NCBI GenBank assembly: GCA_049700655.1
Contig: JBNAUV010000002.1
Coordinates: forward strand, 1 to 42,435
Length of the DNA stretch: 42,435 nucleotides
Direction: 5' to 3'
DNA from: Minisyncoccales bacterium
GTDB taxonomy: Bacteria > Patescibacteriota > Minisyncoccia > Minisyncoccales > RBG-13-42-11
Positions 224-38,626 of the stretch are shown in pieces (within the stretch, counting starts at the first letter, position 1; every line of letters starts with the position of its first letter). The translations under genes were made by a program, and so were the position numbers. The notes under the pieces were generated by a model. That model had not been told where the DNA came from, ran no database searches, and saw only the letters and a list, made by a program, of their open reading frames with translations.

Positions 224-246
224 TAAAAAAACAACCCATTGGGTTG
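224..246 (-). terminator. Intrinsic terminator after the 267..1256 gene
   Basis: On the minus strand: stem CAACCC / GGGTTG, 3-nt loop, then a run of T's (plus-strand A-run 224-231). Confidence 0.6.
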
Positions 247-266
247 AAATTTCCAATTACTAAGTT

Positions 267-1256
267 TTATTCTAATTTTTTTTCCACCTCTTTAATCTCT
301 TTATTAATAAATTTTTCTGAAAGATCTAAAGCCTCTTGAATTTGGTTGCGCACCCTTTTTTCCTCTTTGCTTAAATCAGCCTTTTTATCAAATAAAGAAA
401 CGCGTTCATCAATTTCTTCCCTTAAAGCGCGGAAAACAATACTGATTCTTTGGTCAATCTTGCCGATTTCTTTTTTTATTTGGTTGCGATATTTAATTTG
501 TCGGTAACGACAATAACAAATCATCATTAAAAGAATAATAATTAACAAAAGCAAAAGAATAATAATATTTTCGCAAGTCAACATTTGATTTAACCACGGC
601 CCCAAAACAGGAATACGCAATAAGAAATCGCGCCAAGTCAATTCTTTGGTTGGCACTACCACTGGTCTCACTTCTTCGGTTGGTGTGGCTACTTCTAATG
701 GCGCTTCCCCTTCTTCCACTTCTTCTTCTTTTTTTTCTTTTTCTTCTTCAAGCGGAGTAATTTCTTTCGCAATTAAAGTATAACTACCGCTACCAGTTGA
801 AGACAAAATATTGGTGCCCTTGCCATCATCAGCCAAGACTGAACCGCTGCTAAAACTCAGGTTAGCCGTGCCCGCGGTTTTGGCTTTAAAAGTAATACTT
901 AGTAGCGTGCCAGCAGCGCCAGTATAACCGGGCGTTGGTTTGCCGCCGGCAAAACTAATTGTGCCCAAGGCGTTAGAATAAGTCGGTTCTTGGACCCAAA
1001 GCGAAAAAACCGAATCAGTTTTAGAAACCCTGACTACTTCAATTTTATCTGGATCAAAAACCAAAGTGGCGTCAGCCGCGTTTATAGCCACACCGCCGGA
1101 ATTAACTTTGACCTGAACTAAAAAAGTATTGTTAACTGTATAAGTCCCGGTGGAAGGCACCACATATAACGATGCTTTCTGGGCTTTCGCTGTTAAAGGC
1201 AACCAGACCAAATAAACGCTAAAACACAATAAAATTAGAAACTTGTTGAAATTCAT
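267..1256 (-). CDS. Membrane-anchored cohesin-domain surface protein
   Basis: Signal peptide (LPLTAKA|Q). Cohesin-like beta-sandwich (LYVVPSTGTYTVNNTFLVQVKVNSGGVAINAADATLVFDPDKIEVV...LSITFKAKTAGTANLSF). Acidic Glu-rich linker, one TM helix (IIILLLLLIIILLMMI) and a Lys/Glu coiled-coil tail. Confidence 0.7.
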   Translation of the reverse strand: MNFNKFLILLCFSVYLVWLPLTAKAQKASLYVVPSTGTYTVNNTFLVQVKVNSGGVAINAADATLVFDPDKIEVVRVSKTDSVFSLWVQEPTYSNALGTISFAGGKPTPGYTGAAGTLLSITFKAKTAGTANLSFSSGSVLADDGKGTNILSSTGSGSYTLIAKEITPLEEEKEKKEEEVEEGEAPLEVATPTEEVRPVVVPTKELTWRDFLLRIPVLGPWLNQMLTCENIIILLLLLIIILLMMICYCRYRQIKYRNQIKKEIGKIDQRISIVFRALREEIDERVSLFDKKADLSKEEKRVRNQIQEALDLSEKFINKEIKEVEKKLE

Positions 1257-1323
1257 AGAAACTTATAGAAATTTATTCCAATGAATTTCTATTAATTTTG
1301 CAGCCGAAGGCTGCGTATTTCCA
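1257..1323 (-). repeat. Intergenic TAGAAAT-type motifs plus GC hairpin with UUCG loop
   Basis: Minus strand reads tggaaatac-GCAGCC-ttcg-GGCTGC-aaaattaatagaaatt...aatttctataagtttct-ATG. The hairpin lies at 1300-1314. There is also an inverted tagaaatt/aatttcta pair. Confidence 0.5.
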
Positions 1324-2259
1324 TCAGTTTCTATCAGTTTCTTCTTTTTTTCTTATCTTTGTAATAATAAGTATTATGACTGCTCCACCACCCAATAAAA
1401 TCAATGGTATTATCCAGTAAGGAAATGGTTTTATTGGCGGTACATACTCCACAATTCTTTCATTGCCCGCTTTATCCACTGCCTTCACTTTTATTATAAT
1501 GCCCAATCTCTGATTTTTCAACAAATAGGGACTACTTGCCCTCTGCCAGTCGGCCTCCCCTTCTTTTACCTCATAATAATCAATACCGCTTTGTTTGTCT
1601 TGAGCCTGAAAAACAATAAAGTATTTTCCTTCAAGAATTGACTTATCTCGGTTAAGTTTAATTTCAAATTGTTCGGGCGGAAGAGTATCTCTTATTAAAA
1701 TTGTTTCCCATTCATTTAATGGCTCTTCTCGTTTTTCCGGTAAAATAGTTAGGACAGCATTTTTAAAATTTAATTTAGCCGGCGTTCCCAAGCCGTCATT
1801 TAATAAACCTTGCGAGCTTTCCAGAAATTCCACTTTCGCGTAGTTTTGTGTTCTGTTTGGCGCGGTTTCGCGTACTTGAAAAGCAATTCTACCAAGCAAA
1901 TTTGGCTTTCCCAGCTCTCCGGGCAAAACCCCACAATAGCCGCCCGGAATTCCACCGGTAAAAGAAATTTTTCCTTCTTCTTGGTTAATTTTCGGACTTT
2001 CCAACCAAATGCTCAAAATTGAATTGCCAGTGCTAAAATCAACCACCTCTAAAATATCTTTAGAAAAACTCAAATCAACTTTAACTGTGTTAATACACTC
2101 GCCTTCGGTATCTATTCTCGTTTCAACTATAAAGATGTCACCCTGATAATATTGACCCTGGGAGGGCGCTAAATATAAAACTACTGCTTTTGTACCCAAG
2201 GGAATCAATGTGAAGAACAACAGAAGTATTGAAATTTGTAGAAACTTATTGAAACTCAT
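1324..2259 (-). CDS. Cohesin-domain surface protein with a second Ig-like domain and C-terminal TM anchor
   Basis: Signal peptide. Cohesin-like segment (VVLYLAPSQGQYYQGDIFIVETRIDTEGECINTVKVDLSFSKDILEVVDF...), paralogous in pattern to 267..1256. C-terminal TM (WIIPLILLGGGAVIILIITKI) followed by a basic tail. Confidence 0.7.
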   Translation of the reverse strand: MSFNKFLQISILLLFFTLIPLGTKAVVLYLAPSQGQYYQGDIFIVETRIDTEGECINTVKVDLSFSKDILEVVDFSTGNSILSIWLESPKINQEEGKISFTGGIPGGYCGVLPGELGKPNLLGRIAFQVRETAPNRTQNYAKVEFLESSQGLLNDGLGTPAKLNFKNAVLTILPEKREEPLNEWETILIRDTLPPEQFEIKLNRDKSILEGKYFIVFQAQDKQSGIDYYEVKEGEADWQRASSPYLLKNQRLGIIIKVKAVDKAGNERIVEYVPPIKPFPYWIIPLILLGGGAVIILIITKIRKKEETDRN

Positions 2260-2301
2260 TGAAATTTATTGTTTTTAGACTTATAAGTAGAAGAGATGAA
2301 A

Positions 2302-2671
2302 TTATTCAGTTTGATAGGCAATTTCTCGGCAATTTTTTTTGAATTCCTTATATCTCAACTCGTCTACCTTTCCTCTTTCCTTAAGTAATTCTATCCAATA
2401 ATCGTTGCATTCACTTAAAGAAGCTCTACTATTATAGAATAGAAAAATTTTATTTTCTCTTCTCTAAAAAATGAAATCTACCATACCCCTCTGCGATATT
2501 AGCTCCAACTGAATCTGTTGCCTCAATAAATTGATCCCCGCTAATCTTTTTTGTTTGCCAATCCAAAGAATTATAAATCTCCCATCCAATTTTAGACAAT
2601 TCTCTTGCTAATTGGTAAACCTCCAAATCCTTTAACAAAATATATTTATTTTTATTCCCACTAATTTCCAT
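2302..2671 (-). pseudogene. Four-helix-bundle protein (23S rRNA-IVS protein family) with a frameshift
   Basis: The N-terminal 73-aa ORF ends ...SVGANIAEGYGRFHFLEKRK*. The family-typical continuation (RRENKIFLFYNSRASLSECNDYWIELLKERGKVDELRYKEF...) reads in another frame, starting at a T-run (cattttttagag) near 2465. One indel in a homopolymer would explain it. Confidence 0.65.
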
Positions 2672-2726
2672 AAGTTTCTATTAATTTCAGCCCGAAGGGC
2701 TATATTTCTATGAAGTTTCCAAGATA
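2672..2726 (-). repeat. Intergenic TAGAAAT motifs plus GC hairpin with UUCG loop
   Basis: Minus strand reads catagaaatat-AGCCC-ttcg-GGGCT-gaaattaatagaaactt-ATG. The hairpin lies at 2689-2701. The layout matches 1257..1323. Confidence 0.5.
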
Positions 2727-3743
2727 TTAGCCCGTCCAATAATACATCAATATGGAAAAATCTGGCAAATTGACAATGCCATCGCGATTCATATCCACGC
2801 AAGGATTATATTTTCCCCACCAGTAAAGCATAATGGAAAAATCAATTAAATTCACTCGGCCATCTTTATTAAAATCAGCGCCCGGACAAACCTGGCCCTC
2901 TTCATATCGGCCAACATAAAAAGTCAATACATTAGAATAAGATGACTTTAATCCTTCTAAGGTTTCTGCCTTGGCGCGCGTTGTATGAGTGCCCTCTTCT
3001 AAAACAGCTGTGTTAAAAAGATATTGCCAGAAGCCCAATTTATCCGCCTGAGTATTTTTCATAATTTCGGTTGATTGAATTGAAATGCTTAATTGGCTTT
3101 CTGGCGCTGTTTGGCCTAAAATATTTAAAGATTCGCCTTTGGTTACTTTGGTTTTATCTAACTCAATTGTGGGCGGAATAAAAATATCAGATACAGTGGT
3201 GGTTAAATTGTTTTGTACGCTAACAGTAAAAGAAAAAGTAATTGACCGCCGTCCTTTTGTATCTTCAGCCCATAAACTAAAAGTGTAAATACCGCCATAA
3301 AGATCAGTAATTTCAGTTTTAAAATTAGCCAGAGCGTCAGCTGTAATCATTTTCACCACCCGGCCGTCCATTAAAATCGTAATTTTTGCCAAAGGATAAG
3401 CTTTACCTTCTAAAATTACCCGTGTTTCAGTGCTGGGCGGCACACCCCCGCCTCCGCCGCCGCCTCCGCCGCCGCCTCCGCCGCTAGTGCAATTAGCAGT
3501 ATTAAAAGTACAAGCCGGAGTACAACTTAAAGAGCCACCTGTATAGCCCAAAGTTTGACAGGTGGCTCCACCCAAATCCGTACCATCGCACTGCTCGCCA
3601 GTTTCTTTGATATTATTTCCGCAAACCGTGATTCTAATTGTGGCTTGAACAGTGGCGGTTTCAGCCGCAAAAACAAAAGAAAATTCGCTCCAGAAACCGA
3701 TTAATAATAAAGAAATTATAATAATTAGAAAAACTTTTTTCAT
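2727..3743 (-). CDS. Secreted protein: Cys-rich repeat, Gly13 linker, Ig-like region and C-terminal type-I dockerin
   Basis: Signal peptide. CGNNIKETGEQCDGTDLGGATCQ...C repeat (myxococcal Cys-rich-repeat style). A run of 13 Gly. Two C-terminal 22-residue Ca-loop segments, DFNKDGRVNLIDFSIMLYWW and DMNRDGIVNLPDFSILMYYW, give the dockerin signature. Confidence 0.75.
   Translation of the reverse strand: MKKVFLIIIISLLLIGFWSEFSFVFAAETATVQATIRITVCGNNIKETGEQCDGTDLGGATCQTLGYTGGSLSCTPACTFNTANCTSGGGGGGGGGGGGGVPPSTETRVILEGKAYPLAKITILMDGRVVKMITADALANFKTEITDLYGGIYTFSLWAEDTKGRRSITFSFTVSVQNNLTTTVSDIFIPPTIELDKTKVTKGESLNILGQTAPESQLSISIQSTEIMKNTQADKLGFWQYLFNTAVLEEGTHTTRAKAETLEGLKSSYSNVLTFYVGRYEEGQVCPGADFNKDGRVNLIDFSIMLYWWGKYNPCVDMNRDGIVNLPDFSILMYYWTG
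3444..3482 (-). repeat. GGC/GGA trinucleotide tract encoding Gly13
   Basis: Minus strand reads ggc gga ggc ggc ggc gga ggc ggc ggc gga ggc ggg ggt, with an internal 12-nt periodicity. Confidence 0.9.
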
Positions 3744-3768
3744 TCATCTCTTAATAAATAATAAAAGC

Positions 3769-3868
3769 AAACCTCAAAATGCAAATCTCAAAATGAAAAT
3801 TAAAAATGGAAAATTAATTTTTAACTTTGCATTGTCATTTTGAAATTTGAGATTTGAATTTTAAATTC
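3769..3868. repeat. ORF-less copy of the A/T-rich inverted-repeat scaffold that flanks the 5323..5667 4HB gene
   Basis: Left half (ctcaaaatgcaaatctcaaaatgaaaattaaaaatggaaaatt) is about 90% identical by eye to 5280-5322. Right half (ttgcattgtcattttgaaatttgagatttgaattttaaatt) matches 5676-5722 apart from a 7-nt indel. The internal 11-bp stem is caaatctcaaa/tttgagatttg. Only about 10 nt separate the arms. Confidence 0.7.
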
Positions 3869-3875
3869 CAATCAA

Positions 3876-4490
3876 TTACTTCCTCGCGATCTGAATCTTA
3901 AATCTTTTACCAATCAATCTAATCGCAATCGCCAAAACAATTAAAACCAAAATTATCGTGTCCCACGGATGATATTTTCTATATAAACTGATAAATCGGT
4001 AATAAATCCCTTGAAAGATATTGGCAGGCGCAACCGTGAAATAAAGCTTGGCAGCCGCCGCCACTCCTACTCTTGTCTGACCGCTTTCGGCTTTTTTAAC
4101 CGGATGGCCTTCCAGATAAGCAAAATAATTTCCCGGAACGGTTTTTGTCGGCAGGGTCAATGTAATTTTGACCTGCTGAACCTGACCCGGCTCCAAATGA
4201 AATGAGGTCGGTTCAAAACTAAACCACTCTTTGGCTGGTTTTAATCCCATCTCAGGATTTGTTTCCTGCCCTTCATGATATTCAAGGGAAACTCCATATT
4301 CTCCCGGCTCATCTCCAGTATTTAAAACCGGCAAAGATGGCAAATCATAAATCATTCCCGCTTTTAAGGGTTTATCAACCTGAATTTTGCCAACCCCAAC
4401 TCCCACTCCAATTCTGCCGAAAACTACCATCGGCAAAACCAAAACCAAACCAGCCAGCAATATTAAACTAACTCGCGTCAGTTTTCCCAT
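3876..4490 (-). CDS. Signal-peptide protein with Ig-like (PapD/DUF916-like) domain and C-terminal TM anchor
   Basis: N-terminal signal/TM. Beta-rich segment with FEPTSFHLEPGQVQQVKITLTLPTKTVPGNYFAYLEG, typical of Ig-like surface domains. C-terminal TM (TIILVLIVLAIAIRLI) plus a basic tail. No family assignment is possible by eye. Confidence 0.6.
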   Translation of the reverse strand: MGKLTRVSLILLAGLVLVLPMVVFGRIGVGVGVGKIQVDKPLKAGMIYDLPSLPVLNTGDEPGEYGVSLEYHEGQETNPEMGLKPAKEWFSFEPTSFHLEPGQVQQVKITLTLPTKTVPGNYFAYLEGHPVKKAESGQTRVGVAAAAKLYFTVAPANIFQGIYYRFISLYRKYHPWDTIILVLIVLAIAIRLIGKRFKIQIARK

Positions 4491-4559
4491 AAATTTCTAT
4501 TTTTATTATTTCTCTATATTTCTATGTATTTCTACGTATTTCTACCAGTTTCTATTCAA
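4491..4559 (-). repeat. Array of TAGAAAT-type motifs upstream of 3876..4490
   Basis: Minus strand reads aatagaaactgg-tagaaatacg-tagaaataca-tagaaatatagagaaataataaaaa-tagaaattt-ATG. That is five to six copies of TAGAAA(T/C). Confidence 0.6.
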
Positions 4560-5084
4560 TTAGCTAGCCACTGCCTGAACAGTCACATCAACTGATTGCT
4601 GAGTATAGTTAGAAGTAGCTGTTGGCGTGCCCAATCTCAATTGAAAATCAACTGTGCCGCTTGTCGCAATGCCGGTATCCAATGTCGCATAACTGGTGGT
4701 TAAAGCAGTATAATTGGTTGGCGGTGTTGAACAATCATTGTCCGTATCATTGCAGAATTGATGAGTGTATTGTTCAGAACCAGGCGAAGATGCCAATGTC
4801 CAGTTAGCGCTGTTTTGTCCCTTGATATTAAAGTTTTCAGTGACATTACCGTTGTTAGTGGCAGTTTGCATATCATTCAACTCACCAGGAAGCGTACTTT
4901 TCCAGGTATTGACTGCCATTGTCCCATAAGCCACCGAACCATCAGAAACTGAAACCGAGATATTCTGAACCGTCACTGTGGCTGTCACTGTTGCTGTGTC
5001 AGCTGCCCTAACTATTGTAAAAACCATCATTCCTGCCAAAGCCAAAATTCCAATTGTGGCAATTAATTTCTTCATATAGTTCAC
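4560..5084 (-). CDS. Small secreted beta-rich protein, paralog of the C-terminal module of the 5723..8146 protein
   Basis: Signal peptide (TIVRA|AD) and an SD-like aaggtga 6 nt upstream. Residues 42-174 are about three-quarters identical by eye to the last 137 aa of the large protein (LPGELNDMQTATN.GNVTENFNIKGQN...WTLAS...QFCNDTD.DCS.PPTNYTALTTSY...QQSVDVT.QAV). Confidence 0.8.
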   Translation of the reverse strand: MNYMKKLIATIGILALAGMMVFTIVRAADTATVTATVTVQNISVSVSDGSVAYGTMAVNTWKSTLPGELNDMQTATNNGNVTENFNIKGQNSANWTLASSPGSEQYTHQFCNDTDNDCSTPPTNYTALTTSYATLDTGIATSGTVDFQLRLGTPTATSNYTQQSVDVTVQAVAS

Positions 5085-5127
5085 CTTAATTTTATTTTAA
5101 CCTTTTATTAAACTCGACCTTTCAAAT

Positions 5128-5152
5128 AAAAAAGCACGCTAAAAATGCGTGC
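5128..5152 (-). terminator. Hairpin plus T-run between the 4HB cassette and the 4560..5084 gene
   Basis: Minus strand: GCACGC-atttta-GCGTGC followed by tttttt. Confidence 0.55.
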
Positions 5153-5181
5153 AAAAATTTGCCTCTTTTAAGAGTTGTCTC

Positions 5182-5197
5182 AGAGAGAGAGAGAGAG
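5182..5197. repeat. (AG)8 / (CT)8 dinucleotide microsatellite
   Basis: agagagagagagagag read directly from the sequence. It is intergenic, upstream of the 4560..5084 gene. Confidence 0.95.
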
Positions 5198-5234
5198 TAT
5201 CTATTTGTCTTAAAACCCATCATAGTTTTATTAT

Positions 5235-5262
5235 ATTATAGCAAAGATTGTAAGGCAAGCAA
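5235..5262 (-). promoter_or_regulatory. Candidate sigma70-type promoter (TTGCTT-16-TATAAT)
   Basis: Minus strand reads ttgctt gccttacaatctttgc tataat. Downstream lie the (CT)8 tract, the hairpin at 5128-5152 and the 4560..5084 gene. Confidence 0.4.
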
Positions 5263-5270
5263 CTGTGGAT

Positions 5271-5722
5271 AAAATTCAAATCTCAAAATTCAAATCTCAA
5301 AATGAAAATTTAAAATGTAAAATTATTTTTTACCTTTCATAGTTAATACACCAGCACCGATAATTTTGGCAATTTCGTCCACTTCTCGAAGTAGTTTATC
5401 GGCTTGCACTTTCAAATCGGTTAAACTTTCCCTAACAAGAATTAACCAATATTTTGTTTCATTAGCACTTTTAAGAGCGATTTGGAAAAATTTCAAATAA
5501 TCAAGTTTTGAACTCGATGCTTTGGCTTCAATAATATTGGCTCCAATTGAAGTAGCTGAGCGTATTAATTGATCGGCTATTGACCATAAGTTTCTATCCT
5601 TGCGAACTTCCTGGCAGAATTTAATTATTTCTAAAGAAAATTTAATAAGCCGTCTATTAAATTCCATTTTGAATTTTGAATTGTCATTTTGCATTTTGAG
5701 ATTTGAGGTTTGAATTTTAAAT
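5271..5722. repeat. A/T-rich inverted-repeat scaffold enclosing a 4HB ORF ('filled' cassette)
   Basis: Left arm 5271-5322 (aaaattcaaatctcaaaattcaaatctcaaaatgaaaatttaaaatgtaaaatt) and right arm 5668-5722 (tttgaattttgaattgtcattttgcattttgagatttgaggtttgaattttaaatt) are mutually complementary, built from caaaat/ctcaaa units. The ORF sits exactly between them. Confidence 0.7.
5323..5667 (-). CDS. Four-helix-bundle protein (23S rRNA-IVS protein family)
   Basis: MEFNRRLIKFSLEIIKFCQEV...LIRSATSIGANIIEAKASSSKLDYLKFFQIALKSANETKYWL shows the family pattern. I moved the start to Met35 of the tracked ORF, because the upstream part is the repeat arm and overlaps the preceding gene. Confidence 0.8.
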   Translation of the reverse strand: MEFNRRLIKFSLEIIKFCQEVRKDRNLWSIADQLIRSATSIGANIIEAKASSSKLDYLKFFQIALKSANETKYWLILVRESLTDLKVQADKLLREVDEIAKIIGAGVLTMKGKK

Positions 5723-6136
5723 TTACGGTTGCACTGCTTGTATTGTAACATCAACTGATTGCTGGCCAAAGCAACTTGAAGGATTGGGTGTGGTCAGCCG
5801 TAATTGAATCTGGACCGTGCCATTCACCGGAATGCCGGTATCAAGCGATTGATAGCTGGTGGTCAAGGCAGTATAGTTTGTCGGCGGTGAAGAACAGTCA
5901 TAATCAGTATCATTGCAAAACTGATGGACATATTGGTCAGAGCCGTTAGTTGAGGCCAAGGTCCAGGTGCAGCCTCCGCCACTGGCATTCTGTCCTTTAA
6001 TATTGAAATTTTCCGTCACATTGCCGTCATTGGTTGCTGTTTGCATATCATTCAACTCTCCAGGCAAAGTGCTTTTTGAAGTATTAGCCGGCATAATCCC
6101 ATAAGAAACCGTGCCATCAGAAACCGAGACAGAAAC
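5723..6136 (-). repeat. Paralogous module copy (the other copy is 4560..4961)
   Basis: The similarity is visible at nucleotide level too, e.g. gtttgcatatcattcaactc(a/t)ccagg and cccataag..acc...ccatcagaaac are shared. Confidence 0.8.
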
Positions 6137-8146
6137 AATCGCCGCTGAAGCAGTGGTAATTTCTGGAATCACGCTGTAGGTATTCAAAAGCGTGCCATCG
6201 GCTTTGACAACGCGCAAGCAATAGGTGGTACTTGCCGGAGCGTTGTTATCTTTGAGCGAGAAATCCCATTTGCCGTCCTGTCCCGAAGGAATGGCCGCGA
6301 CAGAGTTTGTAAAATTATTTAATTCCTCGTAGGTTTGGTTCACAATCGTATCCGCGCCGTGGGTGGGGTCATTGGTGTTGGCGGTCAAGGTCGCGCCATC
6401 AGCCGGAGTTGGATTATCATTATAAGCAATTACTGTTGAAGTTGCAACGTCATTATAAGTTTCACCGGAAAAAGCAGTATCGCATAAATTATCTGTTCCG
6501 CGTTGGGCAAATTGAAGTTTGAAACTTTGACCATTTAAAGCTAATTGATTGGCGCCGATATGCAAAAGCATTCTTAATCTGAAAGCCGCGCCGGAAGAAC
6601 CAAGAGTCGCCGCCGTATCCTGCGCCGCCAAAGGAGTTCCGACATCCGTAGAATCAAGATTATTAAACAAGCGGTAAGCGGATTGGGTAAAAGTAGGTGT
6701 GGGAATAAACCGCCAGTACGCGAAAGAAAACGGCTGGGCGATCGCCGCCGGCAGATTCGCTTGAAGCGCGGCGCCGCCGTCGGCATTTGTCCAAGTAAAT
6801 GTTGGAGTAGCATTCATAATCAAACGCTTGGCAAAAAGGTCGTTGTTCACATCCGAAAGAGTAAAAATGAGCCGGTCTTTGTTGAAAGGATCTGTCTGGA
6901 TGTCATACCATTTTTGAGGATTGCCAAAAGCCGGCGTGGGAGTAAAGTCGGTTTGAATGGTAAAGGTGCCGCCATTGCCTACAATCCAGCCGACATTTGT
7001 TGCCGCAGAGTCATTGTAAGTGCAGACGCTTCTTTTGGTCGCGCCGGAAGTCAGCCAGCCGCAGGCAACAAGTTTTGTGCCGGCAAGAGGTGTCGCGGCG
7101 GTAGGATCTAGGTTTGCAGTATTGGTCCAGGCAGAGCCTGACCAGTAACCAATCTGAAGGTCAGAGCCGGCATTCCCAATTGAGGCAAAAACCATTTCAT
7201 CGGTATTGGGATTGGCGGCTAAATCCATATTGGTTGCGTCATCAGCCCAAGTTGGCGGGGTTTGGACAGCGCTCCAGGTGCAAGTTGAGGTGCCGCCGGT
7301 GCAGGTGGCGTATCTTACGCCGTTTGTGCCGTTTGCGCCAACGGAATTTGCCCAAATAACCATTACATCGCCAGATACAGATTCATATTCAACTTCAAAG
7401 TCATCGGGTTGCGTCGTAGCTAGCTCAAGCGAGGTTTCCAGAGCAGCGGATGGCTCATTGCCCCAGGCAGTGCCTGACCAGACCATTGCTGAAAGGTCGG
7501 CGTTGGCATCAGCCCAAATAGCGGTAATAAGATTAGAAGTAGAGCGTCGGTCCCAAGCCATTTCTACCCATTGCACCACGCCCGAAGTCCGAATCGGGTC
7601 AAGATTGGTTGCCGCTGACCAGTTAGCAGTGCCGCAGCCAGTTGATCCGGCTTTGGTGCGATACGCAAGCTCGTTGGTGGTTGCAGCATTAGTTGAATAA
7701 AGCACCATCACATCTCCGCTATTGGTTTCGTAAGCAATATCAAAACGCCTGGTGGTGCCGGTGCCGCCCACAGTCACGCTCCACTCATTCGTCCACGAGG
7801 TGCCGTCATAGCACATCACTTGCAAAACACCGCTGGAATTGACATATCCAGCAATGGCTTCCTGTTTGGTGGGCGAGGTGCGCACCACAAAATTGAGGCC
7901 TGTTGCGCCGCTAACTGTTCCGGTTTCCGCACCGAAAGAGTTAGTCCCGCCGTTATACGTCCTCCACTGCGGAGTGGTGTTGCCGGAGATGCCATAAAGG
8001 ATGAGTCCGTCACCGTTTGCAACATCGAGCGCCTGCGCTTTTTGAATCTCCGGCGGAATCGCCGGATTTTGCCAAATCCTCGGAAAACCGCTGAATATCC
8101 AAGCCATTATTAAAATAAAAATAAGAAAAAACTTTGAAAAAGACAT
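5723..8146 (-). CDS. Large secreted surface protein: Trp-repeat (beta-propeller-like) region plus C-terminal shared module
   Basis: Likely start is MSFSKFFLIFILIMAWIF (signal/TM), since the tracked start at 8200 lies in a repeat arm. Recurrent G-[ST]-x-W-[TG]-N segments (GTSWTNEW, GTAWGNEP, GSAWTNTA). Thr/Ala/Gly/Asn-rich. The last 137 aa are paralogous to 4560..5084. Confidence 0.75.
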   Translation of the reverse strand: MSFSKFFLIFILIMAWIFSGFPRIWQNPAIPPEIQKAQALDVANGDGLILYGISGNTTPQWRTYNGGTNSFGAETGTVSGATGLNFVVRTSPTKQEAIAGYVNSSGVLQVMCYDGTSWTNEWSVTVGGTGTTRRFDIAYETNSGDVMVLYSTNAATTNELAYRTKAGSTGCGTANWSAATNLDPIRTSGVVQWVEMAWDRRSTSNLITAIWADANADLSAMVWSGTAWGNEPSAALETSLELATTQPDDFEVEYESVSGDVMVIWANSVGANGTNGVRYATCTGGTSTCTWSAVQTPPTWADDATNMDLAANPNTDEMVFASIGNAGSDLQIGYWSGSAWTNTANLDPTAATPLAGTKLVACGWLTSGATKRSVCTYNDSAATNVGWIVGNGGTFTIQTDFTPTPAFGNPQKWYDIQTDPFNKDRLIFTLSDVNNDLFAKRLIMNATPTFTWTNADGGAALQANLPAAIAQPFSFAYWRFIPTPTFTQSAYRLFNNLDSTDVGTPLAAQDTAATLGSSGAAFRLRMLLHIGANQLALNGQSFKLQFAQRGTDNLCDTAFSGETYNDVATSTVIAYNDNPTPADGATLTANTNDPTHGADTIVNQTYEELNNFTNSVAAIPSGQDGKWDFSLKDNNAPASTTYCLRVVKADGTLLNTYSVIPEITTASAAIVSVSVSDGTVSYGIMPANTSKSTLPGELNDMQTATNDGNVTENFNIKGQNASGGGCTWTLASTNGSDQYVHQFCNDTDYDCSSPPTNYTALTTSYQSLDTGIPVNGTVQIQLRLTTPNPSSCFGQQSVDVTIQAVQP

Positions 8147-8150
8147 TAAG

Positions 8151-8622
8151 GGGAATTTTGAATTTTTAATTCTGAATTTTGAATCAAATGCGAATTTCAT
8201 AATTTTGAAACATTATTTACATGACGATAGAATTTTGCCAAAAATAAGCGTTAATTCCTGCGCTTCCTGCCAAAGTTTTCGCAATTCATTCTTTTTCTCA
8301 GGTAGACAACGCGACATCATACGCAGCCAGTGTTTTGTTTCCTGAGCCTCTTTTTTATAAATAAAAATTTTATTCTTAAAATCCTTCTTGGAACTTGCGG
8401 CGTTCGCTTCCATATAATTGCGCCGATACTTGTGCCAGAACGAACAAGCTGACTGATAGTCGGTTTGGTAATCGCATCCTGCTTTATGGCTTTGCAAAAA
8501 TCAATAATATCTTCTCCAAATTTCGCCGTCCGTTCTTCAAAATCGTATTTAATTTTTCTTGTTTCAGTCATTTAAAAATAAATTATTCATTCGAAATTCA
8601 AAATTCAAAATTTAAAATTGAA
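8151..8622. repeat. A/T-rich inverted-repeat scaffold enclosing a second (frameshifted) 4HB ORF
   Basis: Left arm is gaattttgaatttttaattctgaattttgaatc. Right arm is cgaaattcaaaattcaaaatttaaaattgaac. They contain the complementary 12-mers tgaattttgaat/attcaaaattca. The unit style matches 5271..5722, but arm polarity relative to the ORF is reversed. Confidence 0.55.
8213..8571 (-). pseudogene. Four-helix-bundle protein gene with a 1-nt frameshift
   Basis: Frame A gives MTETRKIKYDFEERTAKFGEDIIDFCKAIKQDAITKPTISQLVRSGTSIGA. The family pattern then continues in frame B (NYMEANAASSKKDFKNKIFIYKKEAQETKHWLRMM...). The junction at about 8415 (ggcgcaattatatgg) looks like the loss of one A. Confidence 0.7.
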
Positions 8623-8770
8623 CTTAGGCCAGCCGGAAAAAATCCAGCCTGTCGCCATCAAAAAAATAAAACAAAACACCAAAAGGGGGCGAATAAAGCT
8701 TTTTTTTAATTATTTTCACCATTTTATTCTATTTTATATATATTTTATTATATTTTACCAAATCTTCCCC

Positions 8771-8795
8771 CTGTCAACAATTACTGTCAACAATT
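8771..8795. repeat. Tandem direct repeat ctgtcaacaatt x2 (13-nt period)
   Basis: Read directly from the sequence. On the minus strand each copy contains TTGACA, and TATAAT/TAAAAT lie 14-19 nt downstream. It may be a promoter or operator for the surface operon, but the spacing is non-ideal. Confidence 0.5.
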
Positions 8796-8828
8796 CCCAC
8801 CCCTATTTAACCCCCCCATACCGAGCTA

Positions 8829-8863
8829 TCCCAAGGTTCGACCTCGGGGCGGCAACCTTGGGA
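8829..8863. repeat. REP-like hairpin, degenerate inverted copy, 3' of the RAYT gene
   Basis: tcccaaggttcgacctcgggg differs at 2 positions from the reverse complement of the 21-mer at 9411 and 9639. The outer 10-bp stem is tcccaaggtt/aaccttggga. Confidence 0.6.
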
Positions 8864-8894
8864 CAGTAACCTTGATATGGTATGGTTCTATTAT

Positions 8895-9623
8895 CTATTC
8901 TAATTCTAAGTAAAATGAATTGTTAATAAATTCAGCTTTGTATTTTATCCAATTTTCTATACTCTTTTTAAACAGCTTAATACCACCTATTGATTTTATC
9001 AAAAAGTCTCTTTCCGACACTGAAGGAAAATTCTTTTTTCCAATATAATCTAGATAACTTGACCACCTGTATGTCTCCAGAAACTTCATTGTTTTTTTGG
9101 GATTTTTAATTCCTTTTTCTTTCCATTTTGGCTCTATTAAAGAAATAGGGTTAGTATGGATATATACAGAAACATTTTTCAATTGATTATTATCTTTAAT
9201 ATGAACGGTCCGAAAGCCCTGAAAGAGATGGCCCTTTCTATTATATTTTTTATTAAAATAAACTGCATAACCAGTTCCAACTTTTCTCATAAATTCAGTA
9301 ATGCCCCCATCTTTAATCTGTTTAACTAATAAGTGAATATGATTGGGCATTAAACAAAAACTTAATATCTGAACAAACTTTTCCCTTTTATCAACTTCCT
9401 GCGGCAGTTTTCCCGAGGTCGAACCTCGGGATTTCTTTTTTAAATTGGCACGGGCTTTTCGACGGTCTTTGATAGAAACTGATTTTGCATTATTAAATTC
9501 GTAAAGTGAAAAAATACCCCGATAATAATCGTCGATATTCTTAAAAATCAAAGAATCTCCCACACCCCGAATCACAAGATGATAAAATTCATTATTAATT
9601 AATTCTATCTGTTTTCTTGCCAT
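8895..9623 (-). CDS. REP-associated tyrosine transposase-like protein (IS200-like Y1/HUH transposase family)
   Basis: N-terminal FYHLVIRG, HUH motif LMPNHIHLL, GHLFQGFR, catalytic-Tyr motif YIHTNP, and YRWSSY. The start is set at MARKQIE. The tracked extension to 9704 runs through the hairpin and the 16S terminator. Confidence 0.75.
   Translation of the reverse strand: MARKQIELINNEFYHLVIRGVGDSLIFKNIDDYYRGIFSLYEFNNAKSVSIKDRRKARANLKKKSRGSTSGKLPQEVDKREKFVQILSFCLMPNHIHLLVKQIKDGGITEFMRKVGTGYAVYFNKKYNRKGHLFQGFRTVHIKDNNQLKNVSVYIHTNPISLIEPKWKEKGIKNPKKTMKFLETYRWSSYLDYIGKKNFPSVSERDFLIKSIGGIKLFKKSIENWIKYKAEFINNSFYLELE
9411..9431. repeat. REP-like palindromic 21-mer inside the RAYT coding sequence
   Basis: tcccgaggtcgaacctcggga (8-bp stem, 5-nt loop) is identical to 9639-9659. 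It is in frame and encodes SRGSTSG. Confidence 0.9.
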
Positions 9624-9638
9624 AATTGTACCAAGTCG

Positions 9639-9659
9639 TCCCGAGGTCGAACCTCGGGA
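9639..9659. repeat. REP-like palindromic 21-mer upstream of the RAYT start
   Basis: tcccgaggtcgaacctcggga is identical to 9411-9431 and lies 228 nt (76 codons) from it. Confidence 0.9.
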
Positions 9660-9684
9660 TAATTCTATTTTAACAAAATAAAAC

Positions 9685-9714
9685 AAAATAATAAACCCAG
9701 CCAAAATGGCTGGG
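9685..9714 (-). terminator. Intrinsic terminator downstream of 16S rRNA
   Basis: Minus strand: CCCAGCC-atttt-GGCTGGG followed by tttattatttt. Confidence 0.65.
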
Positions 9715-9853: not shown

Positions 9854-11510
<1,657 letters not shown>

Positions 11511-33957: not shown

Positions 33958-35160
33958 TTAAATATTTAATTTATTTTCTATTTGAACTAAACGCTGATAT
34001 TTGATCATTCTTTCTGGCGGATAAGGCGCGCCGGATTTTATAAAATCAGCGCCAAGACCCACAGCTAAATCAGCAATAAAATCATCTAATGTTTCGCCAG
34101 AACGATGAGAAACCATAATGCGCCAGCCAAAGGAACGAGCTAATCGCACGGCCTCTAAAACTTCAGAAACTGTGCCAATTTGATTAGGTTTAATAATCAC
34201 TCCTGAACAAGCTTTTTTTTGTTGAGCCAATCTAATTCTCTGCGGATTAGTCACGGTTAAATCATCGCCAATAATCAAAATATTAGTTTTCTTTTTTAAT
34301 TTAGACCAAGCTGACCAATCATGTTCAGCAAAAGGATCTTCGACGGAGATAATGGGATATTTCTTAATTAAACTCAAATAATAATTAATCAAACTATCAA
34401 CATCAAATTTTCCAAATTTAGTTTGATAATAACCACGTTGATAAAATTGTGAAGCGGCCACATCTAAAGCAATCTTAATTTTTTCTTTAATGCCGGCTTT
34501 TTTGACAGCTATTAAAATTAATTCAATGGCCTGTTCCGGTTGTTTAATAGGTGGCATAAAACCACCTTCAGCGCCCAATTTAATGGCTATAGAACCGAAT
34601 TTATCCAATAAAATCTTTTTTAATTGCTGATAAACTTTAATTCCGATTTTTAAATTTTCTTGAAATGACTGGCTTTGTGGCGCTAATAAAAATTCTTGAA
34701 AATCTAAACCATTTTCAGCGTGCGCTCCGCCATTAATGATATTAAAACAGGGTTTAGGTAATTTTGTTTTCTTTCCTTGGTAAAGAAGTTGAATATATTG
34801 ATAGAGCGGTAGTTTTTTTAAAGCAGCGCCAGCCCGACAAACTGCTAAAGAAACAGCTAAAAGAGTATTGGCGCCCAACCGACTTTTATTTTTTGTGCCA
34901 TCTAATTTAATTAAAAATTGGTCAATTTTTTCTTGTTGGGTTAAATCCCAATTTTTAAAAAGAGGTGCAATAATTAAGTTAATGTTTTTGATGGCTTTCT
35001 CTACTTTAACTGGTTTAGCCTCAAAACGGCCAGCTGATGTGCCAGCTGGCACAGCTGACCAGATTCTTTTCTTGCCCAAAATTAATTCCACAGCCAAAGT
35101 CGGTCTCTTTTTTGAATCTAAAATTTTCTGCGGCTTAATTCTTACTGTTGATTTAAACAT
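33958..35160 (-). CDS. eno: Enolase (divergent)
   Basis: ILDSKKRPTLAVEL, NGGAHA, and SHRSGETLDDFIADLAVGLGADFIKSGAPYPPERMIKYQRLVQIE. Confidence 0.85.
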   Translation of the reverse strand: MFKSTVRIKPQKILDSKKRPTLAVELILGKKRIWSAVPAGTSAGRFEAKPVKVEKAIKNINLIIAPLFKNWDLTQQEKIDQFLIKLDGTKNKSRLGANTLLAVSLAVCRAGAALKKLPLYQYIQLLYQGKKTKLPKPCFNIINGGAHAENGLDFQEFLLAPQSQSFQENLKIGIKVYQQLKKILLDKFGSIAIKLGAEGGFMPPIKQPEQAIELILIAVKKAGIKEKIKIALDVAASQFYQRGYYQTKFGKFDVDSLINYYLSLIKKYPIISVEDPFAEHDWSAWSKLKKKTNILIIGDDLTVTNPQRIRLAQQKKACSGVIIKPNQIGTVSEVLEAVRLARSFGWRIMVSHRSGETLDDFIADLAVGLGADFIKSGAPYPPERMIKYQRLVQIENKLNI

Positions 35161-35675
35161 TGCAAAGAATAAAAAGGTATGTCAATTATCCGACCCTCAT
35201 TATAAAACTTTCCAATCATACCCCAAAAGTCTTTTTCAAAATCGCTCCAATTATAAGGTCCTAAAGAGGCTACAATATCTTTTCGGCAATCAGCCTCTCC
35301 ACCCTCTAACTCATTCTCATCTATAGCATAATATTTTCCCCAAGGATCAAGAATCGCGCCACCTAAGCCCAAGGCCTGAAAACTGGCTTCCATAGTTTGA
35401 CGACACTCTTCGCATTGAAAATTACAGCTTACTGTCGAACAACTACAAACTGAACAATTATTCTTGGTAATATCTTTTAAAACTTTATCTTCATTAATCC
35501 GGGCAATTTCAATTGCTTTTCTAATCGTAGCCAAATCTGATTGCATTTTAGCGATTCTGGCTTTTTCCCGCGCGTTCTGAATATTCACAAAAACCACTAA
35601 AGAAAGAAGTCCAATAATAGCAATCACCACCAAAAGTTCAATTAAAGTAAAACCATTTTTATTTTTTAATAGCAT
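35142..35675 (-). CDS. Type IV pilin / pseudopilin-like protein with a Cys-rich insert
   Basis: Class III signal and methylation site KNG|FTLIELLVVIAIIGLL. The globular part contains CSVCSCSTVSCNFQCEEC. It overlaps both neighbouring genes by 17-19 nt. Confidence 0.8.
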   Translation of the reverse strand: MLLKNKNGFTLIELLVVIAIIGLLSLVVFVNIQNAREKARIAKMQSDLATIRKAIEIARINEDKVLKDITKNNCSVCSCSTVSCNFQCEECRQTMEASFQALGLGGAILDPWGKYYAIDENELEGGEADCRKDIVASLGPYNWSDFEKDFWGMIGKFYNEGRIIDIPFYSLQCLNQQ

Positions 35676-36603: not shown

Positions 36604-37881
36604 TTAATGAGTGGCACAAGAAATACAGGGATCGTAAACCCTGATCAACGACCTGATTTTTTTAATTTTTTCTTTTGGCGATAGATTCATAATTTGCGGT
36701 AAAAAAATTTTTAAATCTTCTTCTAAATTATTCAAAAATTGTGCTGTGGGAGTAATAATATTGCAATTAAGAATGCGGCTATTTTTATCAATCTCAAAAT
36801 AAGTGAAAAGAGTGCCGCGCGGCGCTTCCATGGCTGATAAACCAGAACCTTTATTAATTTTAACCTCCTTAATCTCTTCTGACAAATCTAATTGAACCAA
36901 TTTTTCAATTAATGCTTTACTCAACTCTAAAAAGTGTAAAATTTCAATGCCTTGCGAAAAAAGATTATAGAAACGATTTTGGAAGAATTCCTCCTTGGTT
37001 AAATTTTGTTCTTTTAAAAATTTTTCCAATTGCGACCGGGCAACTTGATTTAAATTCTGAAAACTATTTTTAATTCTGCCAGCCGCACCCAACATATAAA
37101 CCTTACCTTTATATTTGGTTCTTTTCACTGGTGGAATTTTCAAATCCTCTTCGATTTCATTGGAATAAAAATCTCCAATCGACATTACTTCTTGACCAAT
37201 TTTAACTCTTTCTGCTCGATAAAAAGCGTAATCCTGAGGCATAAATAAAGAAAGGTAATCGGTTGATTTTAAAAGTTGCGGATAATTAATTTTAGCCAAA
37301 GTTTCAATCAAAAAAAGAGCTAACTCAAAAGTAGCTGGATAATCAGCTAAAACCTTTTTTAATTCTTTTTTATCGGGATATCGCCGAAAACCGCCAATAG
37401 TTGGCGTTACTGGATGGACTTTACGACCGCCAATAATTTTAGTAATGGTCAAAGCAAAATCTCTAATTTTAATCGCTGCCTCGCTTTCTTTTTTAAATTT
37501 TTTGAATAAATCTAAATCATTTTCAATATTCAGAAAATCAGGCAAAGACATAAAAAACAAATGCAAAGCATGACTATGAATAATTTGACTGGCTAAAAAC
37601 AATTTTCTTAATAAGGTTGTAACTTCTGAAACTTGAATTTCCAGGGCTTTTTCTAAAGATAAACAGGCGTTAAGAATGTGTACTACTGGACAAATCCCAC
37701 AAATTCGTGAAACCACAATGGGCACATCCTGCGCTCTTCGCCCCACCAAAATTCCCTCGATCTGCCGCAAACCCAGTTGCGTAGTTAATTTCAATTTTTT
37801 AATTTGGCCAGTTCTGGCCACCTCGGCAAAAAAACCCATCTCACCTTCAATTTTATGAATATGTGGAATGCTAACTTTCAT
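36604..37881 (-). CDS. [NiFe]-hydrogenase large subunit (short, group-3-like)
   Basis: N-terminal RICGICPVVH (RxCGxCxxxH) and C-terminal DPCISCATH (DPCxxCxxH), which is followed directly by the stop codon. Confidence 0.85.
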   Translation of the reverse strand: MKVSIPHIHKIEGEMGFFAEVARTGQIKKLKLTTQLGLRQIEGILVGRRAQDVPIVVSRICGICPVVHILNACLSLEKALEIQVSEVTTLLRKLFLASQIIHSHALHLFFMSLPDFLNIENDLDLFKKFKKESEAAIKIRDFALTITKIIGGRKVHPVTPTIGGFRRYPDKKELKKVLADYPATFELALFLIETLAKINYPQLLKSTDYLSLFMPQDYAFYRAERVKIGQEVMSIGDFYSNEIEEDLKIPPVKRTKYKGKVYMLGAAGRIKNSFQNLNQVARSQLEKFLKEQNLTKEEFFQNRFYNLFSQGIEILHFLELSKALIEKLVQLDLSEEIKEVKINKGSGLSAMEAPRGTLFTYFEIDKNSRILNCNIITPTAQFLNNLEEDLKIFLPQIMNLSPKEKIKKIRSLIRVYDPCISCATH

Positions 37882-38626
37882 ATTTTGCTATATCGTCTTT
37901 AATACCAAAAATTTCTAAATTTTCCTCTAGTTCTTCAGATTGAGGCAAACTTTTGACCAAAGCCAAATAATTTTTAATATTAGCCTCTTTCAGTAAACCG
38001 CGACAACCTAAACATAATAAACCATTATTTGGGCAAACCGCTTCGCAACCAGCTAAAGTAACTAAACCTAAACAAGGTTTCTTTTGGATCAAAAAGCAAT
38101 CTTTACTACCTCGCCGAGAACATTCAACACAGACTGGTTTGGAAGGAATTTGCGGAATCTCTCCTTTAATTAATTGCTGGCCGTATTGCAAAAATTCCTC
38201 GCCATTAATTGGACAACCCGGTATGACAAAATCAACTTTAACAAAGTTATCTATCTCTTTAATTTCCGGATTAGCGATATTTTTTAATTTTTTATAAATA
38301 AAACGAATAGTTTTTTCTTTCCCTTGATAATTTTTCATTTCCGGAATGCCACCCAAAGCTGCACAATTACCCAAGGCAACTAAAATTTTTGCTTTTTTTC
38401 TGACTTCTTTTAAAAACTTTATTTCTTCTTTATTAATTGGCACTCCCTCCACAAAAACCACATCAATTTTCCCTTTGGGAAAAGGCCTATCTTCAATCAA
38501 GGCAAAATCAACCAGCTCCACTTGTTTTAAAAAATCAAAAAGTTTTTTACCTAAATCCAAAAGAACAAATTGACAACCCTCATCAGAGGTTAAAGAAACA
38601 ATGGCGACTTTTGCCTTTCTGACCAT
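37871..38626 (-). CDS. [NiFe]-hydrogenase small subunit (NuoB-fold plus extra Fe-S Cys clusters)
   Basis: SDEGCQF, LGNCAALGGIP and IPGCP (proximal cluster ligands), then CVEC...C...C...GC..VCP...C..C. An 11-nt overlap links it to the large-subunit gene. Confidence 0.8.
   Translation of the reverse strand: MVRKAKVAIVSLTSDEGCQFVLLDLGKKLFDFLKQVELVDFALIEDRPFPKGKIDVVFVEGVPINKEEIKFLKEVRKKAKILVALGNCAALGGIPEMKNYQGKEKTIRFIYKKLKNIANPEIKEIDNFVKVDFVIPGCPINGEEFLQYGQQLIKGEIPQIPSKPVCVECSRRGSKDCFLIQKKPCLGLVTLAGCEAVCPNNGLLCLGCRGLLKEANIKNYLALVKSLPQSEELEENLEIFGIKDDIAKYES

Follow-up and report, generated by a model that had tools for sequence, protein, structure and literature searches.

What do cohesin and dockerin modules do when they are encoded side by side outside a cellulosome? 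The question is raised by a 42,435-nucleotide stretch of contig JBNAUV010000002.1 from a Minisyncoccales bacterium, the whole of which we call the window. Its minus strand carries a gene for a secreted dockerin protein (g4), followed by two genes for membrane-anchored cohesin-type proteins (g5 and g6). An earlier note, made from the letters alone, had read these genes as a minimal docking system sufficient unto itself. We found that the three open reading frames (ORFs) and their cohesin and dockerin calls hold, and we have hardly any doubt that both modules are real. What did not survive is the idea of a minimal, stand-alone system. The trio is the proposed anchoring half (the last three genes) of a conserved six-gene surface operon of Patescibacteria, in which it lies distal to g1, g2, and g3.

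The six-gene cluster g1 to g6 occupies positions 267 to 8200, the entire set on the minus strand. Its features are given here in the order of transcription, which runs on from the hairpin to tRNA-Ile (aa, amino acids; Ig, immunoglobulin):
g1, 5723..8200, minus strand: ORF of 825 aa, putative tip or head subunit
four-helix-bundle gene, 5323..5769, minus strand: TIGR02436 / PF05635, "23S rRNA intervening sequence protein," outside the system
g2, 4560..5084, minus strand: secreted beta-sandwich protein (171-174 aa) in which a signal peptide precedes the N-terminal strand ADTATVTATVTVQN, putative major fiber subunit
g3, 3876..4490, minus strand: 204 aa with signal peptide, single PapD-like (MSP-type) Ig domain, and transmembrane helix, putative membrane-tethered chaperone or assembly factor
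g4, 2727..3743, minus strand: secreted protein of 338 aa, stalk or adaptor with C-terminal dockerin
dockerin module of g4, 2736..2876, minus strand: residues 290-336, two EF-hand-like Ca loops with a helix after each
truncated four-helix-bundle fragment, 2450..2671, minus strand: 73 aa, about half of the PF05635 model, in the g4/g5 gap, outside the system
g5, 1324..2259, minus strand: membrane-anchored protein of 311 aa, cohesin-like module at about residues 25-175 (nucleotides 1735-2187)
g6, 267..1256, minus strand: membrane-anchored protein of 329 aa, cohesin at residues 33-156 (nucleotides 789-1160)
terminator-like hairpin plus T-run, 232..246, minus strand: directly after the g6 stop codon and ahead of tRNA-Ile (54-125)

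By hydrophobicity, all six proteins have an N-terminal signal segment, and g3, g5, and g6 also have a C-terminal transmembrane helix. The hairpin at 232-246 is a possible end of the operon. It counts for little as evidence, because terminator-like sites in the region are no more frequent than expected from shuffled sequence (11 found versus 11.0 expected); promoter-like sites numbered 51 against 25.4 expected.

The dockerin was compared with Dockerin_1 (PF00404), which g4 matched over residues 290-333 with 25.8 bits (cutoff, 22.9). Both dockerin segments quoted in the earlier note were found exactly, at residues 290-309 and 317-336. Each consists of a 12-residue EF-hand-like Ca loop (DFNKDGRVNLID and DMNRDGIVNLPD) and a helix, giving the two-segment form of a dockerin. 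Loop residues D1, N3, D5, and D12 of both repeats are invariant across 12 g4 orthologs, 11 of which matched Dockerin_1 (best E 2.7e-10). In the PDB, the g4 dockerin gave a weak match to a cellulosomal dockerin, 2y3n_B (E 0.013). The parts of g4 are, in order, a signal peptide, an N-terminal strand ETATVQATIRITV, a six-Cys module, a poly-Gly linker, two Ig-like domains, and the C-terminal dockerin. Its orthologs all keep the signal peptide, a short alternating strand, the six-Cys module, and the dockerin, with a linker rich in Gly or in Pro/Thr. They can do without the two Ig domains, since minimal orthologs of about 175 aa (loci L005, L012, L068, and L079) keep only the strand, Cys module, linker, and dockerin. 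These data show g4 to be a secreted stalk protein ending in a canonical two-loop dockerin. The Cys-rich head matched no Pfam or NCBIfam family. A proposed resemblance to myxobacterial Cys-rich repeats was dropped, as no match backs it.

On the cohesin side, g6 scored 33.3 bits against Pfam Cohesin (PF00963; gathering cutoff, 24.1; E 6.7e-08), with residues 33-156 aligned to model positions 5-134 of 139. The same family was matched by 8 of 11 g6 orthologs. The protein is built of a signal peptide, the cohesin, an acidic linker, a transmembrane segment at about 222-254, and a cytoplasmic coiled-coil tail of about 75 aa. Its homologs form 310 clusters, most of which, about 575 aa long and from Parcubacteria lineages, combine Cohesin with Big_13 domains. 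Some homologs are already labeled “cohesin domain-containing protein” by NCBI.

The g5 protein itself gave no direct match to PF00963, yet it is a paralog of g6. The N-terminal 160 residues of g5 are 34% identical to g6 over 161 residues (BLASTP E 2e-23), and the two ortholog profiles aligned by hhalign with a probability of 100 and an E of 1.9e-46. This profile alignment also spans a second Ig-like domain, “PPExF...SGIxxYE...KAVDKAGNE,” which is common to full-length g6 orthologs. Two of 10 g5 orthologs matched PF00963 on their own (best E 1.2e-05), and the only PDB matches of the g5 profile were four cellulosomal cohesins, weakly (E 0.035-0.55). Direct PDB sequence searches with g6 and g5 gave nothing useful, and the g6 profile found nothing there. 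The order of parts in g5 is signal peptide, cohesin-like module, Ig-like “PPExF...SGIDxYEV...KAVDKAGNE” domain, and a transmembrane segment at 278-303; residues 216-267 matched an NCBIfam OmpL47-type domain below the cutoff. The membrane-anchored topology proposed earlier stands for both proteins. As single-pass membrane proteins, g5 and g6 are shown to be paralogs, each exposing a cohesin or, in g5, a cohesin-like module.

Some features of g6 deserve separate mention. In the window, the protein (329 aa) does not have the Ig-like middle of about 250 aa (the Big_13 region) of its usual orthologs of about 575 aa; the acidic linker lies there instead. In L001 and L002, g6 is split into an ORF of 337 aa plus one of 229 or 261 aa. 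The cytoplasmic tail (about residues 255-329; window positions 267-500) is coiled-coil-like and 30-45% identical across distant orthologs, being kept in L001, L002, L009, L014, and L099-L102. No family was found for it. Its conservation may mean that the cohesin anchor has a partner inside the cell.

Is the neighborhood of dockerin and cohesins a matter of chance? We gathered related loci by searching with g3, so that they were collected without selection on cohesin or dockerin. This search yielded 12 loci in GTDB genomes and 80 of more than 316 metagenome loci, and the counts below are based on 79 distinct loci. The GTDB genomes with the cluster include Staskawicz-, Wildermuth-, Komeili-, and Wolfebacteria, among others. 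Relatives are named Parcubacteria, Nealsonbacteria, Minisyncoccia, WWE3, and WS6, which agrees with the note's view of an organism resembling the Candidate Phyla Radiation (CPR). The six-gene order recurs in the 12 GTDB and 80 metagenome loci and is identical in L001 and L002, at an unrelated genomic place (downstream of dnaK/dnaJ). A g2/g1-like gene lies directly upstream of g3 in 57/57 loci with enough upstream sequence. On the other side, a g4-like gene adjoins g3 in 46/47 loci with enough downstream sequence, and 45 of these 47 have a dockerin-like C terminus there; in one of the two exceptions (L090), a degenerate dockerin is visible by eye. At least one cohesin ORF follows downstream of g3 in 26/27 loci, and two follow in 17/22. 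Working back from three g6 homologs, each on a long contig, we found g4 immediately upstream of g5-g6 in all three. In WWE3 and WS6, the clusters have a minimal g4, its dockerin asymmetric, and a single cohesin protein with its transmembrane anchor segments at the N terminus; the WWE3 cohesin scored 29.4 bits against PF00963 (cutoff, 24.1). The synteny that the note had thought worth surveying is thus extensive, and with counts of 45/47 and 26/27, the adjacency of g4 and the cohesins is not chance.

The earlier note had also seen a puzzle of partner specificity in two cohesins facing one dockerin. That arrangement is real, but it is not peculiar to this genome, a g5-type cohesin being always accompanied by a g6-type one. 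In four loci (L004, L057, L068, and L081), a g5-type and then a g6-type cohesin are present in tandem in one ORF, so the pair of cohesin types is itself conserved. This gene fusion argues that the g5-type and g6-type cohesins act together.

We then asked how the modules diverge, using pairwise distance matrices from 22 nonredundant loci. Distances between dockerins correlated with those between g6-type cohesins with an r of 0.80 (partial r of 0.79 given g3), a value reached by 0 of 2000 permutations. The corresponding r was 0.51 for the g5 cohesin, 0.16 for g3, and 0.12 for g2. Two modules are visible in these distances, one of g2-g3 (r of 0.65) and one of the g4 dockerin, g4 stalk, g5 cohesin, and g6 cohesin (r of 0.51-0.80). 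The correlation of dockerin with g6 inside the largest cohesin cluster was 0.78. When the loci are sorted by their g6 cohesins, dockerin subtypes fall together, e.g., the “YWWGKYNPCVD” type of the window, while g3 types do not separate them. By these sequence distances, g4, g5, and g6 are shown to be inherited and to diverge together. The co-divergence of dockerin and g6 would fit coevolution of an interface and, equally, inheritance or exchange of g4-g6 as a block. In both cases the trio is a unit, and we consider it likely that g4-g6 functions as one.

A unit of this kind could still be more open than a dedicated pair. Proteins with a dockerin like that of g4 form 3536 clusters at an E of ≤1e-3 and 436 at an E of ≤1e-10. 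Many of these dockerins are 60-70% identical, C-terminal, and carried on the same Gly-linker plus Ig-Ig stalk with unrelated heads of 200-900 aa. Because so many other proteins bear such a dockerin on different heads, g4 need not be the sole cohesin ligand. One may therefore picture g5 and g6 as membrane sockets for several dockerin-tagged surface proteins across the genome, with g4 being no more than the ligand in cis; such sockets would form a nonenzymatic analogue, on a small scale, of the anchoring scaffoldins of cellulosomes. The keeping of two distinct cohesin types would suit it, as would a third type of cluster (L102), in which a 581-aa protein with the cassette of Gly linker, Ig-Ig, and dockerin is encoded near a g6-like cohesin, two genes upstream of it. 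The local picture speaks for a narrower role. Ortholog-derived dockerin and cohesin hidden Markov models (HMMs), run over six frames of the 42 kb, matched only g4, g5, and g6, so that the window has a single dockerin; other dockerin proteins may be encoded elsewhere in the genome. All 68 dockerin matches in the loci sit in g4-type ORFs, and none was found outside g4 within ±6-10 kb of about 90 loci. The tight co-divergence of dockerin and g6 cohesin also fits a dedicated pair better than a promiscuous socket, and we regard the general socket as an unlikely account of the locus.

The other half of the operon consists of proteins that matched no curated family in Pfam or NCBIfam (g1, g2, and g3). 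Best conserved in the whole cluster is g3, with 52-58% mean column identity. Its AlphaFold2 model (predicted local distance difference test score [pLDDT], 85.5) has an amphipathic helix and then a transmembrane segment (174-199) after the Ig domain. Foldseek returned 136 PDB matches at an E of ≤1e-3, led by chaperones of chaperone-usher systems; the top matches were FaeE, DraB, Caf1M, PapD, FimC, CfaA, SafB, and CupB2, together with eukaryotic MSP/ASH “PapD-like” domains. Against FaeE, DraB, Caf1M, PapD, and FimC, the E values were 8e-6 to 2e-4. At the sequence level, g3 orthologs gave weak Pfam matches to PapD_N (below threshold; 2/15, E 0.0055), NEW3, and fn3_5, and three relatives are named “P pilus assembly chaperone PapD” by JGI.

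The homologs of g2 form 987 clusters, all unnamed, and the profiles of g2 and g3 found nothing among PDB sequences. The g2 AlphaFold2 model (86 sequences; pLDDT, 92.7) was nearest, almost throughout, to subunits of donor-strand-complemented fibers. The top Foldseek match was the Pyrodictium cannula subunit CanX (9h8b), and the other neighbors were FimG, PapE, FimA, the PapG pilin domain, Hyper2 (9bab), TLP-1, Csu, and AbpA (7ueg). In the mature N terminus of g2 (ADTATVTATVTVQN), hydrophobic and small residues alternate; in the monomer model, residues 19-40 do not form a strand. Its orthologs share a single invariant W-x-L motif.

The product of the first gene, g1, starts with a conserved hydrophobic segment. 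About 600 aa of variable sequence follow, rich in T, A, G, and N and containing W-x-G-x-x-W repeats, and a C-terminal stretch of about 135 aa is homologous to g2 (about 50% identity in the copies of relatives). The N-terminal strand motif of g2 was found by HMM in 0/44 g1 ORFs. Across loci, g1 ranges from 335 to about 1400 aa, and the region before the g2-like domain (300-1200 aa) differs between genomes. The G+C content is 0.51 in window 6001-8000, the g1 variable region, compared with about 0.32-0.39 in most of the window. This jump may stem from amino acid composition and not from foreign origin, since the protein is rich in T, A, G, N, and S and has three W-x-G-x-x-W motifs.

Because the operon also encodes these pilus-subunit-like and pilus-chaperone-like proteins, the cohesin-dockerin pair probably fastens a fiber or stalk to the cell. 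With Ca bound, the g4 dockerin would plug into the membrane cohesins and so fix g4 to the cell; the g6 type would be the best candidate partner, and the g5 type may be a second site or a site for another ligand. Judged from the indirect evidence of synteny and co-divergence, direct binding of g4 to a cohesin is predicted, and we favor it. At its other end, the N-terminal beta-strand of g4, which resembles the g2 extension, and the Cys-rich head would join a fiber of g2 subunits capped by g1. In this purely hypothetical step, g4 would donate its strand to the last g2 subunit and, having no acceptor domain of its own, would end the fiber and tie it to the membrane cohesins, while g3 would help to fold or assemble the fiber. 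The cohesin-dockerin pair would then do the job of the usher in Gram-negative chaperone-usher pili, or of sortase and LPxTG in Gram-positive bacteria, in holding an adhesive appendage. CPR cells are regarded as monoderm, and the appendage would be held on an envelope without an outer membrane. As a whole, the reading that g5 and g6 hold g4 by its dockerin and that g4 is the basal adaptor of a g1/g2 appendage, assembled with the aid of g3, is one to which we give even chances. The attachment of a fiber through g4 in particular is tentative and less likely than not. Equally tentative is the stronger proposal that Patescibacteria build an usher-less, chaperone-assisted fiber of the donor-strand type, with a g1 head, a g2 shaft, a g3 chaperone, and a g4 adaptor docked in transmembrane cohesins.

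Several observations weigh against this reading, and we take them step by step, beginning with the pairing itself. Type I dockerins of Clostridium thermocellum have a Ser-Thr recognition pair at loop positions 10 and 11. In g4, these positions are Leu-Ile and Leu-Pro, so that the recognition residues differ from the cellulosomal ones. The score of g5 below the Pfam threshold and the block inheritance that would equally explain the co-divergence count on the same side, as do the degenerate, asymmetric dockerins of WS6, WWE3, and L090. Moreover, cohesins and dockerins outside cellulosomes have been catalogued since 2009 (Peer et al. 2009, as cited in PMC5244752), and their function is still described as unknown in PMC5244752. 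Perhaps, then, the modules do not pair at all. The EF-hand pair would be a Ca-dependent stabilizer or would bind, e.g., a wall polymer or the host surface, and the cohesin-like sandwiches would bind the g2 fiber, carbohydrate, or peptidoglycan. We find this improbable, given that dockerin and cohesin co-occur, are absent together in L013, co-diverge, and are neighbors again in three different cluster types, and that the Ca-loop residues are invariant.

A second group of observations concerns the coupling of the trio to g1-g3. In L013, g2-like and g3-like genes (6135-9353) occur without g4-g6, dockerin and cohesin being absent together; the g2-g3 pair can thus exist without the trio. In L101, the trio stands behind a 1451-aa DUF7483 protein with a WxL-like end, and g4-g6 occur without recognizable g2-g3. 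With g4-g6 also forming an evolutionary module of their own, decoupled from g2-g3, and with a conserved Cys-rich head on g4 that could bind a ligand, the membrane cohesins may simply show g4 as an adhesin or host-contact protein, next to a separate surface system encoded by g1-g3. The earlier note had leaned toward such a display. What makes us doubt it is the wider conservation. The order and tight spacing of g1-g6 are kept in nearly all loci, across three CPR classes, and two variant clusters swap g1-g3 for analogous genes without loss. In L100, the genes before the trio encode a DUF2341/Laminin_G_3 protein (1627 aa), a divergent protein that resembles a subunit (312 aa), and a protein (308 aa) with signal peptide, Ig-like domains, and transmembrane helix. 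In L102, three paralogous proteins of this last architecture, one with a faint DUF916 match, are encoded upstream of the 581-aa dockerin protein. Both keep the logic of subunit, Ig/transmembrane protein, dockerin-tailed protein, and transmembrane cohesin. In addition, the N-terminal strand of g4 resembles that of g2, and the minimal g4, made of strand, Cys head, and dockerin, is more adaptor-like than adhesin-like. We therefore think it rather unlikely that the trio is a display device separate from g1-g3.

As a side observation, L013 is a relative with higher G+C content. It has a 671-aa protein in place of g4-g6, and by translation its upstream gene reads like an ECF (extracytoplasmic function)-type sigma factor.

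For the proposed g1/g2 fiber with its g4 adaptor, the remaining contrary points lie in its structural parts. The HMM of the g2 N-terminal strand scored at least 4 bits on 17/77 g4 N termini, on 1/637 unassigned ORFs (a truncated g4), and on none of the g1, g3, g5, and g6 ORFs, but its median on g4 N termini is -3 bits, a modest likeness. Covariation of the g2 and g4 strands was tried as support and rejected, the within-locus value being 24.6 versus 23.0 between loci, with the diagonal at median rank. The Foldseek matches of g2 are weak, with E values of 8e-3 to 0.1 and template modeling (TM) scores of 0.35-0.5, none reaching 1e-3. As for g3, Ig-type sandwiches of the PapD/MSP kind are generic and occur in eukaryotic proteins too, and g3 has one Ig domain where true chaperone-usher chaperones have two.

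How does this operon compare with known systems? Cohesin and dockerin modules outside cellulosomes are known from every domain of life (Peer et al. 2009, FEMS Microbiol Lett 291:1, as cited in PMC10066038 and PMC5244752). There, as here, PF00963 and PF00404 modules are found in organisms without a cellulose-degrading apparatus, on surface or secreted proteins with a suspected role in adhesion. What differs from the modules so described is that we have a fixed adjacent trio of one dockerin protein with a g5-type and a g6-type cohesin, that the cohesins are anchored by transmembrane helices, and that the operon holds pilin-like and PapD-like genes.

As the earlier note had proposed, the setting is noncellulosomal, with no glycoside hydrolase or scaffoldin in the 42 kb. 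A cellulosome role was ruled out, as we found no glycoside hydrolase, carbohydrate-binding module, S-layer homology (SLH) domain, or scaffoldin among the scanned ORFs of the window, which has one dockerin and two single-cohesin proteins and so falls short of a cellulosome. A parallel is surface anchoring of cellulosomes, in which the type II dockerin of a scaffoldin is bound to cohesins of SLH- or sortase-anchored proteins (SdbA, OlpB, and ScaE). Shared with it are the cell-bound cohesin, the secreted protein with a C-terminal dockerin, and, in some relatives, two cohesins on one polypeptide. Unlike cellulosome anchoring, our operon has no enzymes, carbohydrate-binding module, or multicohesin scaffoldin, and it uses a membrane helix in place of SLH or LPxTG. 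The recognition positions of the g4 dockerin are hydrophobic rather than Ser-Thr, and the cargo is a stalk protein and not a catalytic complex.

Chaperone-usher pili (Pap, Fim, Caf, and Csu) share with the operon the PapD-like fold of g3, the FimG, PapE, FimA, and PapG pilin domain folds near g2, and the alternating N-terminal strand of g2. Their adhesin is paralleled by g1, with a variable head and a C-terminal subunit domain that has no N-terminal extension. In contrast, g3 is single-domain and membrane-tethered, no protein has a family match at the sequence level, the structural matches of g2 are weak, and anchoring would be by cohesin and dockerin. No usher-like gene was found in the window or in related clusters. 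A second comparison is with TasA, archaeal bundling pili, and cannulae, which are donor-strand-complemented fibers of monoderm cells (bioRxiv 10.1101/2024.12.30.630787) and to which g2 is linked by its best, though weak, Foldseek match (9h8b), by the monoderm envelope, and by Sec-secreted subunits. No Peptidase_M73/TasA Pfam match and no sequence similarity to TasA, bundling-pilus, or cannula subunits was found for g2. Those fibers need no PapD-like partner, and none is known with cohesin and dockerin.

A parallel in cluster architecture is offered by the Csc/WxL clusters of Firmicutes, which consist of CscA, CscB, CscC, and CscD (Siezen et al. 2006, PMC1534035; Hassan and Williamson 2022, PMC9772566). 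The small subunit CscB resembles g2, the large variable CscC resembles g1, CscA/DUF916 with its signal peptide and C-terminal transmembrane segment resembles g3, and the short LPxTG anchor CscD resembles g4 (PMC1534035). Faint traces of the same kind are the invariant W-x-L of g2, the DUF916 match in L102, and the WxL-like end of the large protein in L101. However, Pfam WxL (PF13731) matched 0/14 g2 orthologs, and PF06030/PF11797 (DUF916/DUF3324) matched 0/15 g3 orthologs at an E of ≤0.1. The g2 proteins have one W-x-L and not two, and the g4 anchor is of the dockerin-cohesin type and not sortase/LPxTG; we found no Pfam match to sortase among the scanned window ORFs and no LPxTG end in g1-g6, and a sortase-type pilus was rejected on these grounds. 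Membership in the WxL/Csc family was thus ruled out at the sequence level, and the clusters are kept as an architectural analogue only.

The cohesin and dockerin modules themselves are not new, relatives being already labeled as cohesin-domain proteins by NCBI. Full-text searches on cohesin/dockerin or donor strand in Patescibacteria or CPR bacteria gave no description of the fixed trio, or of pilin-like and PapD-like genes coupled to it; they returned only unrelated surveys of carbohydrate-active enzymes (CAZymes) and papers on CPR ecology. Conserved across hundreds of CPR contigs, the operon provides a defined context for a noncellulosomal pair, with one dockerin protein and two dedicated membrane cohesins. 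CPR bacteria are dependent on host cell contact, and their attachment structures are for the most part uncharacterized in molecular terms. A surface operon that is so widely conserved and has a hypervariable g1 head is a plausible attachment device and possibly a marker of host range. If the proposed mechanism is true, it would be a new way to fasten a noncovalent fiber to a monoderm envelope, linking the logic of chaperone-usher, Csc/WxL, and cellulosome systems. It would add a third route of pilus anchoring beside usher and sortase, give noncellulosomal pairs a defined function, and provide a candidate host-attachment organelle of CPR cells.

The site of the cluster in the window is itself unusual. 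Together with an IS200-like gene, g1-g6 are flanked by the 16S rRNA gene (9854-11509, minus strand) on one side and by tRNA-Ile(gat) (54-125) on the other, at what is normally the short 16S-23S spacer of an rRNA operon. The order of 16S, cluster, and tRNA-Ile (then tRNA-Ala) recurs in at least three other contigs (L055, L051, and L085/L086), one of them 53% identical in g3. The IS200-like ORF, at 8895-9704 between 16S and g1, has a Y1 transposase domain (PF01797, E 5.6e-10). Its upstream part contains, at 9411-9431 and 9638-9660, two G+C-rich hairpins that are nearly identical (TCCCGAGGTCGAACCTCGGGA) and may be ends of the element or repeats resembling repetitive extragenic palindromes (REP-like). 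Directly upstream of tRNA-Ile, at about 133-165, a stretch GCGTAGTTCAGCGCTAGAACGC resembles the 5' half of a tRNA; it may be the remnant of a rearrangement or insertion at the tRNA gene. The 16S rRNA gene is 1656 nucleotides long compared with a 1533-position model, i.e., about 120 nucleotides are extra; insertions are common in CPR 16S genes.

Genes of the four-helix-bundle family are inserted within the cluster as well. The gene at the g1/g2 site, intact in the window, is missing from most orthologous clusters and is also present in L037, L041, L051, and L055. At the g4/g5 site, L039 and L040 have intact genes, and the window has the truncated copy. Their presence at two recurrent intergenic sites points to a small gene that is mobile or was inserted more than once.

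Elsewhere the window holds housekeeping genes, including those for ribosomal proteins, glycolysis, Fe-S assembly, NiFe hydrogenase subunits, and FtsZ. Within it, a type IV pilin-like gene with an N_methyl motif and the genes for the large and small NiFe hydrogenase subunits are located at 35142-35675 and 36604-38626. From the N_methyl-motif gene, the organism also has surface proteins of the type IV pilin type.

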